A DNA stretch of 64,000 bases from an uncultured Chloroflexia bacterium (GCA_963772985.1 CAVYZP010000036.1:18401-82400), one strand, 5' to 3'; positions 59,220 through 60,665 are shown, numbered from the stretch's first letter. Numbers and translations are program-made. The notes: generated by a model not told the origin, from the sequence alone.

Positions 59220-59797
59220 TGAGAACCATCTACACTTTTCGTAAAAAGGATAAATTCTGGATTGTTAAATGTGCCAGTGATACCACAATCAAAGAATCTA
59301 TTTATAAATCGCCTATTGAGGCAATCAATAAATTCTTTATTGCTCACAAATTTGAGAGCATAGAGAATTTTGATATTGTCATACCTCAATCTGTGCCTGA
59401 ATCTATCATAATCCACAAACCACGCAGATACAGAAAATTACCTAAAGAGATAATCTCAAAACCTATTCCGGTGATTGACGACACTACCTGGGGTAATAGA
59501 CCTATTCCAAAATCTACCATTGAATTTCAATATGGCTCGAAATGGGTTGCAGTAATTCCACCTTACAAAAAAGAAAATATTTATTATCTCAATTACCAAT
59601 TACCAGAAAATAACAAAGTAGTCATTAAATACGGCTCAAAATCTCAAGATGTGCAGGTTATCAACGGAAATTTAAAACACGATGTATTTATTGACTTAGG
59701 TGAGTCACAAGCCCATGTCTATTTAAAGAATCAGAGATTAAGAATAGATATTTTCAGTGGGCAAAAAGATATTTTTAAAAAGTTAATGCTCAATTAG
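59219..59797 (+). CDS. hypothetical 192-aa protein, start overlaps the transposase stop (TAATG)
   Basis: ORF only. No family recognised. Confidence 0.5.
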   Translation: MRTIYTFRKKDKFWIVKCASDTTIKESIYKSPIEAINKFFIAHKFESIENFDIVIPQSVPESIIIHKPRRYRKLPKEIISKPIPVIDDTTWGNRPIPKSTIEFQYGSKWVAVIPPYKKENIYYLNYQLPENNKVVIKYGSKSQDVQVINGNLKHDVFIDLGESQAHVYLKNQRLRIDIFSGQKDIFKKLMLN

Positions 59798-60210
59798 TTT
59801 CCGTGGTTATACAGAGTAAAATTTCTGTCGAACCAAAAAATATGAAAAACATCATTCCTTCTTACACCAACCATTGGGGCATTATCATGAAATCGAATGG
59901 CTATTATATTTTCGTCTTCCGAAATTGTTGAGGGAATTGGAACTTTGAGTGAATCCCTTGAAATGATTTCTTTTCCAAGTAAATGACGGTCAGATGAGTT
60001 TATCTGTTGCCACGATAGTGAACTTAATATTCTCATGGTGTCAGTAAAACCAATTTTTTGCTCTTTAGAACACAAAGATATACAATAGTTAGTTTGCAAA
60101 TAGATAAATGAAAAAATTGGTTTTCCCGTAATCGGTTGGCTGGCCGGAATCGGGTAAGTTGAATTTTTTATTTTTACCGATTGTTTTTTCTTTTTTAAAC
60201 TGCGAGCCAT
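59794..60210 (-). CDS. 138-aa candidate toxin partner of the Panacea-domain protein
   Basis: ATG overlaps the upstream stop (TAATG). Lys-rich N-terminus. C-terminus is IIAIRFHDNAPMVGVRRNDVFHIFWFDRNFTLYNHG. Confidence 0.5.
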   Translation of the reverse strand: MARSLKKKKQSVKIKNSTYPIPASQPITGKPIFSFIYLQTNYCISLCSKEQKIGFTDTMRILSSLSWQQINSSDRHLLGKEIISRDSLKVPIPSTISEDENIIAIRFHDNAPMVGVRRNDVFHIFWFDRNFTLYNHGN

Positions 60211-60665
60211 TATTTGTTGTTATCGTCTTCCACGAATTGGCTAAAATAATCTATCAATGATTGATGGCTTATTTCGATTCCTGGGACGTCTTCTTTATAG
60301 GCATTCTTCCAAGGAGGTTCTTCATGAGTCATCTCTCGAAGTTTCCATGCTGAATATTGTCCAAACTCATTGTAAATGTCGTTTAAAAAATCCATCGTTT
60401 CTGCATCATAGATGCCAAAATCTATTTCTTCCGATGGTATTGGATTACTACCGTGTTCTTTGTACGCATGGTATACATCAGCGACTACAGGGCCATGCGC
60501 CCAAGCTTCAATCCTGTCAAGAAAAAGTGGTTCGCCATACAAACAAAGATGAAAACCTTGTGCGTAATAAAGCAATTTTTGAAGTTTCAGATTTGTGATA
60601 AGGTCGCCTGTCTCATCATCTGTGAGCGAGAGAAAGTAACGAGCAACATCAATAGCTGATAACAC
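60210..60665 (-). CDS. DUF4065 / Panacea-domain (SocA/GepA-like) antitoxin-type protein
   Basis: DVARYFL...NLKLQKLLYYAQGFHLCLYGEPLF...IEAWAHGPVVADVY. GTG start after GGGAGAAG. Confidence 0.8.
   Translation of the reverse strand: MLSAIDVARYFLSLTDDETGDLITNLKLQKLLYYAQGFHLCLYGEPLFLDRIEAWAHGPVVADVYHAYKEHGSNPIPSEEIDFGIYDAETMDFLNDIYNEFGQYSAWKLREMTHEEPPWKNAYKEDVPGIEISHQSLIDYFSQFVEDDNNK

Follow-up and report, generated by a model that had tools for sequence, protein, structure and literature searches.

What kind of protein is encoded by the small gene that follows a Panacea-domain (DUF4065) gene on the minus strand of this Chloroflexia sequence, and is it a toxin of a new type? The original prediction, made on the 64,000-nucleotide stretch of DNA analysed here (the window), described an antitoxin-type gene translationally coupled to an unclassified 138-aa partner and proposed the partner as a candidate new PanA-associated toxin. 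The pair and the signals ahead of it occupy minus-strand positions 59,794-60,774. The upstream gene, panA (60210..60665, minus strand), starts with GTG and encodes a 151-aa stand-alone Panacea protein, the predicted antitoxin, characterized with Pfam, PHROGs and BLASTP. The downstream gene, panT (59794..60210, minus strand), encodes a basic 138-aa protein (pI 9.7), a putative RNase effector that we place below in cluster T1 using PHROGs, BLASTP, PADLOC, AlphaFold (AF2) and Foldseek. As had been proposed, the two genes are translationally coupled: the TAA stop of panA and the ATG of panT overlap by 1 nt (TAATG). The ribosome binding site is likewise read directly in the sequence, a Shine-Dalgarno-like GGGAGAAG on the minus strand (60677-60670) that lies 4 nt ahead of the panA GTG. 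The descriptive statements of the original prediction all hold. A promoter scan located two sigma-70-like matches upstream of panA (60697..60774, minus strand); the proposed TTGACA-18-TACTAT site is present (60726-60697, 10/12 matches, TG before the -10), but a better one, TTGACA-17-TATAGT, lies at 60774-60746 (11/12 matches), and the AT-rich panAT stretch holds 8 promoter-like sites against 7.8 expected from shuffled sequence. Because this count does not exceed expectation, the panA promoters, though plausible, do not count as evidence on their own. An Rfam search of positions 59000-61700 returned no significant match.

Profile matches identify the upstream gene as one encoding a stand-alone PanA-type protein. 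PanA covers the whole Pfam SocA_Panacea profile (PF13274, positions 1-113 of 113; 88 bits, E 1e-24, cut-off 25.7), and the peptide motifs quoted in the original prediction are also present. It matches phrog_1281 (E 1.9e-52), is 55% identical to a 'Panacea domain-containing protein' of an E. coli prophage (WP_032219532.1, E 2e-56) and is acidic, with a computed pI of 4.4. Its score against the NCBIfam SocA equivalog NF047745 is 72.2 bits, below the cut-off of 190, and PanA is therefore not SocA proper. PADLOC contains no model that matches it.

The partner, by contrast with the original prediction, is not unclassified. BLASTP shows 45% identity (E 7e-36) to an E. coli prophage protein identical to that of Salmonella phage vB_SemP_Emek, and tblastn against Emek orf161 (AFM54334 = YP_006560566) gives E 6e-26; tblastn of phage genomes places further homologues in Pseudomonas temperate phages and Escherichia phages. 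In the GenBank record of Emek, orf149 precedes orf161 with a 62-nt overlap, and DNA identical to this pair occurs in 48 complete E. coli genomes, annotated as 'Panacea domain-containing protein' followed by 'hypothetical protein'. Dataset S1 of Kurata et al. 2022 (PNAS 119:e2102212119; PMC8832971) lists the Emek proteins YP_006560565/YP_006560566 in the order A, T with a gap of -62, in agreement with the GenBank coordinates, and assigns them to pT1/T1. Since the 138-aa protein is homologous to the Emek and E. coli proteins listed as T1, it belongs to an already catalogued family of Panacea partners. On this homology, the pair is an ordinary further member of PanAT cluster T1 and no new toxin family. 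A previously unclassified family had seemed conceivable with no relevant Pfam family detected for the 138-aa protein or for any of 76 family members, and with RefSeq relatives labelled 'hypothetical protein'. Direct homology to listed T1 members refutes it, a PHROG family exists (phrog_8366, E 7.5e-43), and the NCBIfam domain model MAG6450 (NF046006) detects 51/76 members, so that we give the idea next to no credence. The MAG6450 matches are not membership: the 138-aa protein scores 22.5 bits (E 1.2e-4), below the curated cut-off of 40 bits, and none of the 51 was reported above it. On these scores MAG6450 is a related branch.

The T1 family is large. In the accessible part of the table of 1268 predicted PanAT pairs of Kurata et al., pT1 has at least 217 entries, and among four cluster labels counted there only pT2 (MqsR), with at least 218, is on a par with it; the authors label T1 'mRNase' (PMC8832971). 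While a word-based search returned 12 close relatives of the 138-aa protein, a profile search of 1.84 billion representatives returned 1411 clusters (50% identity) at E <= 1e-3, of which 765 reach E <= 1e-10, with lengths almost always of 130-145 aa; the number of clusters and their near-constant length thus describe a large, uniform family. Sequence searches of the PDB, with the single sequence and with a 76-sequence profile, produced only chance matches (POP6 and ubiquitin, E > 0.1). We found neither an HHpred annotation of T1 in Dataset S1 nor T1 accessions in the NetFlax supplements. The pair in the window shares with published T1 pairs (PMC8832971) a stand-alone PanA upstream, a partner of ~138 aa downstream, genes that overlap or lie a few nt apart, and a family spread over many phyla and prophages, but here it is cargo of an IS1-like transposon and not part of a prophage. 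By its nearest homologues, the host also appears to be of another lineage, a Dehalococcoidia-like one from soil; in all other respects the pair agrees with the published ones. In comparison with SocAB of Caulobacter, the founding Panacea antitoxin system, the antitoxin domain is common to both, whereas the SocB toxin (cluster T10 in Kurata et al.) is unrelated to T1. The annotation of the pair is settled as PanAT type T1 with a RelE/BECR-like putative RNase.

We examined whether the two genes stay together elsewhere. Thirteen independent metagenome or MAG loci encoding homologues of the 138-aa protein (30-82% identity) were fetched and located with a 13-sequence alignment. PanA lies immediately upstream on the same strand in 13/13 (phmmer E 2.6e-28 to 4.6e-75 for the PanA homologues), the two genes being separated by -20 to +14 nt, and the loci span at least six phyla, including Dehalococcoidia, Acidobacteriota/Terriglobia, Desulfobacterota, Bacteroidota, Alphaproteobacteria/Holosporales and Planctomycetota. 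Likewise, PanA precedes the partner in phage Emek, a Pseudomonas phage and an E. coli prophage (3/3 inspected). This database check upholds the expectation that the pair is conserved beside DUF4065 genes, and the pairing is far beyond chance. Furthermore, the genes flanking panAT vary between the 13 loci; with PanA retained in all of them, panA and panT therefore move jointly and do not depend on the transposon that carries them in the window. Both proteins diverge in step, PanA being 55% and PanT 45% identical to the E. coli prophage pair. Across phyla, and in temperate phages too, panA and panT thus stay together. In P22-like prophages panAT sits between the DNA-injection genes and mnt/arc/ant, a slot that is the usual site of superinfection-exclusion morons.

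Unusual arrangements also occur among the homologues. In a Holosporales MAG (L012:2905-4131) the T1 homologue runs without a stop into DNA-methyltransferase-like sequence, forming a 408-aa ORF that is either a real RNase-like/methylase fusion or the product of a lost stop codon. In a 164-aa chimeric protein (P0162), the first ~80 residues correspond to the C-terminal part of Panacea and the remainder to the C-terminal two-thirds of T1, probably through a deletion that joined the two genes.

What fold does the partner adopt? By eye, the original prediction had seen a vague RelE/ParE-like strand pattern, and modelling agrees with it. The pLDDT of the AF2 model rose from 73 with 13 sequences to 88 with 76, the latter model exceeding 95 for residues 31-138 and reaching ~55-69 for residues 1-30. 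The protein accordingly divides in two: residues 1-30 form a Lys-rich, disordered tail, and residues 31-138 a RelE/BECR-like core with a strand at 32-34, helices at 49-62 and 67-72 and strands at 80-83, 102-108, 111-118 and 121-127, the RelE-like order of strand-helix-helix-four-strand. In Foldseek searches of the PDB with both models, chains of RelE, YoeB, YafQ, HigB and BrnT fill most of the top 15-18 ranks, as statistically weak matches (E 0.14-1 over both models and 0.16-1 for the 76-sequence model; TM 0.5-0.6 relative to the target); a search of the viral structure library BFVD gave no meaningful match. A RelE/BECR fold of the T1 core is, on these models, supported but unproven.

T1 shares with the ribosome-dependent mRNases RelE, YoeB, YafQ and HigB the predicted order of secondary structure, the size of the core, a basic protein and the second position in a coupled pair. 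Another shared feature is the aromatic-x-His at the extreme C-terminus of T1, which is conserved in YoeB and HigB as well. Unlike these toxins, T1 carries ~30 extra N-terminal residues (the tail has a median length of 31 residues and is net positive in 96% of members), and its antitoxin is a globular Panacea domain rather than of the RelB/YefM/HigA type. It also lacks sequence or profile similarity to them: the Pfam models of RelE, ParE, YoeB, HigB and YafQ match none of the 76 members. Taking T1 for a divergent YoeB was rejected, as hhalign of the family against YoeB, aligned from 13 genomes belonging to the same phylum as the window, gave a probability of 0.05%; for this reason we keep only the analogy of residue types.

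Although the 76 sequences are only ~35-45% identical overall, W67, G79, E81 and R106 are invariant in 76/76, Y134, H136 and G115 are found in 75, D128 in 74, R117 in 68 and H76 in 67. YoeB-type RNases work with Glu, Arg, Tyr and His residues. E81 and R106, together with the near-invariant Y134 and H136 and the less strictly conserved H76 and R117, would make up the set expected of an acid-base RNase site, an assignment that conservation supports without proving it. A ParE-like partner poisoning DNA gyrase would share the same fold class, and ParE was named alongside RelE in the original prediction. Against it, no ParE_toxin match was found in any of the 76 members, and ParE toxins, to our knowledge, lack a conserved Glu/Arg/His/Tyr set. 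Moreover, the closest sequence relative of T1 is an RNase-type BECR domain, and Kurata et al. list T1 as an mRNase (PMC8832971). We regard gyrase poisoning as highly improbable.

That closest relative is the effector of a defence system. The 138-aa protein matches PADLOC model NsnC (PDLC03891) over positions 183-284 of 284, the C-terminal PB-BECR1 domain, with E 1.8e-6, and 70/76 T1 members match the same BECR RNase domain. Likewise, hhalign of the T1 family against one full NsnC (L031) gives 94.4%, and in this single comparison W67, R106 and D128 line up. Homology of the T1 core (31-138) to the C-terminal RNase effector domain of NsnC is thus supported by the profiles, though not proven. In the Menshen paper, NsnC is described with a PB-BECR1 effector domain and an H-R-H triad (Nucleic Acids Res 2025, PMC12065111). 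The domains share the same Trp, Arg and Asp positions, but of the triad only R106 aligns: the NsnC histidines fall opposite T1 I103 and F131 and not H76 or H136 (one NsnC compared), while T1 keeps E81, Y134 and H136 instead. Because of this mismatch the T1 catalytic site is inferred rather than transferred from NsnC, and we treat it as a family-specific prediction. T1 further differs from NsnC in that its domain stands alone, a basic disordered tail replacing the inactive-PIN domain, and in that its partner is PanA rather than NsnA/NsnB. The NsnA/NsnB genes and the inactive-PIN domain are absent at the panAT locus of the window; with PanA as the upstream gene and no N-terminal PIN match, the pair is not a Menshen system. 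Among 151 genomes from the phylum of the window, the only NsnC-like proteins found matched the N-terminal half of the model, and one full NsnC was present among 251 genomes of the order of a Tannerellaceae MAG (L010). The T1-NsnC link is not mentioned in the main text of the Menshen paper (PMC12065111) or in the searchable text and supplements of the Panacea paper (PMC8832971), and to this extent the homology of the effectors is a point not found in either. This homology joins a defence system to a toxin-antitoxin family that is very common, and it singles out E81, R106, Y134 and H136.

Is T1 a toxin? The original prediction would have the 138-aa protein toxic when expressed alone; the published answer concerns the family only and is split. 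In SI Table S1 of Kurata et al., three T1 members were tested in E. coli BW25113: the Clostridium cadaveris protein proved toxic and was not neutralised by its PanA, whereas the proteins from E. coli MOD1 and phage Emek showed no toxicity (PMC8832971). The latter two are the closest tested relatives of the 138-aa protein. The authors caution that a protein harmless in E. coli may still be toxic to its native host (PMC8832971). With the published tests on T1 mixed, 'toxin' stays a prediction for the 138-aa protein. T1 amounts to about a sixth of predicted PanAT pairs, yet it has no Pfam model, is 'hypothetical' in RefSeq and gave these mixed results.

The start codon of the Emek construct bears on this result. 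The tested protein YP_006560566 follows the 161-aa annotation (L015:2342-2827), whereas the PGAP call on identical E. coli DNA is 139 aa (L017:1955-2374). This shorter start lies 4 nt after the PanA stop and is supported by PGAP and by the family alignment; the tested Emek protein therefore carried 22 extra residues on its tail. The extension could itself explain the negative toxicity result of Emek; the N-terminal tail that it lengthens may contact PanA or RNA. A start placed 22 codons upstream of the supported one may hence help resolve the toxicity of T1. Ernits et al. 2023 (PMC10440598) report that stand-alone Panacea domains contact toxins directly to neutralise them, and that in one case this contact involves the unstructured N-terminus of the toxin.

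Might the 138-aa protein be no enzyme or toxin at all, but a non-catalytic partner of PanA, such as a regulator or adaptor that keeps a RelE-like fold? Two non-toxic members out of three tested, the lack of a profile link to the catalytic RelE or YoeB families and the NsnC histidines that T1 does not conserve all suit such a role. However, E81 and R106 in 76/76 and Y134 and H136 in 75/76 sequences, at the low overall identity of the family, form a typical active-site pattern; one member is toxic, and the pairing of a basic with an acidic protein in tightly coupled genes is typical of toxin-antitoxin pairs. We consider a non-catalytic partner improbable.

A further reading is that of a latent phage-defence pair rather than a classical addiction module, in which the T1 RNase is inert alone or in complex and is switched on by a phage cue sensed by Panacea. 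It would explain the lack of toxicity, on over-expression, of the Emek and E. coli MOD1 proteins, both of enterobacterial prophage origin, and it fits the use of the same domain as the Menshen effector, the position in P22-like prophages and the sensory role proposed for Panacea by Ernits et al. (PMC10440598). Yet the C. cadaveris T1 is toxic on its own, PADLOC has no model for PanA, no known defence genes flank the pair in the window, and the negative result for Emek could stem from the 22 extra residues of the 161-aa start. As a general account of the pair we find this rather unlikely. In a broader form, which we offer tentatively as a possibility with the odds against it, T1 would be the free-standing form of the ancestral Menshen RNase effector domain (PB-BECR1), and PanA-T1 pairs would be trigger-dependent defence or exclusion modules whose RNase stays latent until Panacea senses a cue, the window holding one such module as cargo of an IS1-like transposon. 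If true, an RNase latent until a cue arrives would account for the published non-toxicity of the prophage members.

We favour as probable a two-gene PanAT module of type T1, in which a RelE/BECR-like putative RNase is held inactive by PanA. Stop-start coupling would have PanA and PanT made in a fixed ratio. Acidic PanA would then bind basic PanT directly and keep it inactive, as stand-alone Panacea antitoxins do; its point of action might be the N-terminal tail of PanT, which is conserved, disordered and positively charged. Loss or triggering of PanA would let PanT cleave RNA, most likely ribosome-bound mRNA, and growth would stop. In the window the module may stabilise the IS1-like element that carries it, or exclude phages; the latter is suggested because the pair occupies the immI/sieA-type moron slot of P22-like prophages.

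The carrier is an 8.26-kb IS1-like cargo element of low GC (~33%) at 53222..61492, with no strand assigned, defined by inverted ends and a target duplication. GC content drops from ~55% to ~33% between 53.2 and 61.7 kb. Perfect 17-bp inverted ends (GGTAATGGTGCAGTTTG at 53230-53246 and its reverse complement at 61468-61484) are abutted on both sides by an 8-bp target duplication, CGATTTCC, at 53222-53229 and 61485-61492. These ends enclose panAT, which places the pair in transposon cargo as first proposed. An IS21-family element on the minus strand (55864..58579; istA 56896-58422, istB 56177-56902) is inserted in the IS1-like transposase gene; it is flanked by the 7-bp duplication ATGGAGT, and joining the flanks restores one open transposase frame. 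Convergent to panT lies a 192-aa ORF (59219..59797, plus strand) whose 3' end overlaps that of panT by 4 nt and whose start is coupled to the stop of the IS1-like transposase. Searches of Pfam, NCBIfam, PADLOC and PHROGs returned no family for this ORF, and it was not found beside panAT at the other loci examined. We treat it as a neighbour and do not assign it to the panAT module.

The genome is a 2.69-Mb MAG of 48 contigs (95% completeness, 8.6% contamination) that carries one T1 gene and two Panacea genes. The second Panacea gene lies at C42:24193-24519 on the plus strand (50.6 bits), and no T1 partner for it occurs within the genome. Sequence of the window is present in soil metagenomes. 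In a permafrost metagenome, a segment of ~40 bp (60856-60896) reaches a word depth of 223 against 5-30 in its flanks, with many different sequences adjoining both sides. A TTGAAT-18-TAGAAT promoter-like site within it faces the divergent ORF 60926-61171, and the segment resembles a short conserved motif shared by many elements, be it a promoter, an operator or a recombination motif. In one permafrost contig, 59781 is followed directly by 60859; the 1077 nt left out correspond exactly to the panAT cassette and promoter region. The junction may be an artefact, one side being backed by only ~31 nt; if it is real, relatives of the transposon lack or swap the panAT cassette. A metatranscriptome search of 59200-61500 found no RNA over panAT. 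The sole signal there is a 240-nt contig over 61144-61383, with 2 differences, which covers most of an 87-aa zinc-ribbon/membrane ORF (61187-61450).
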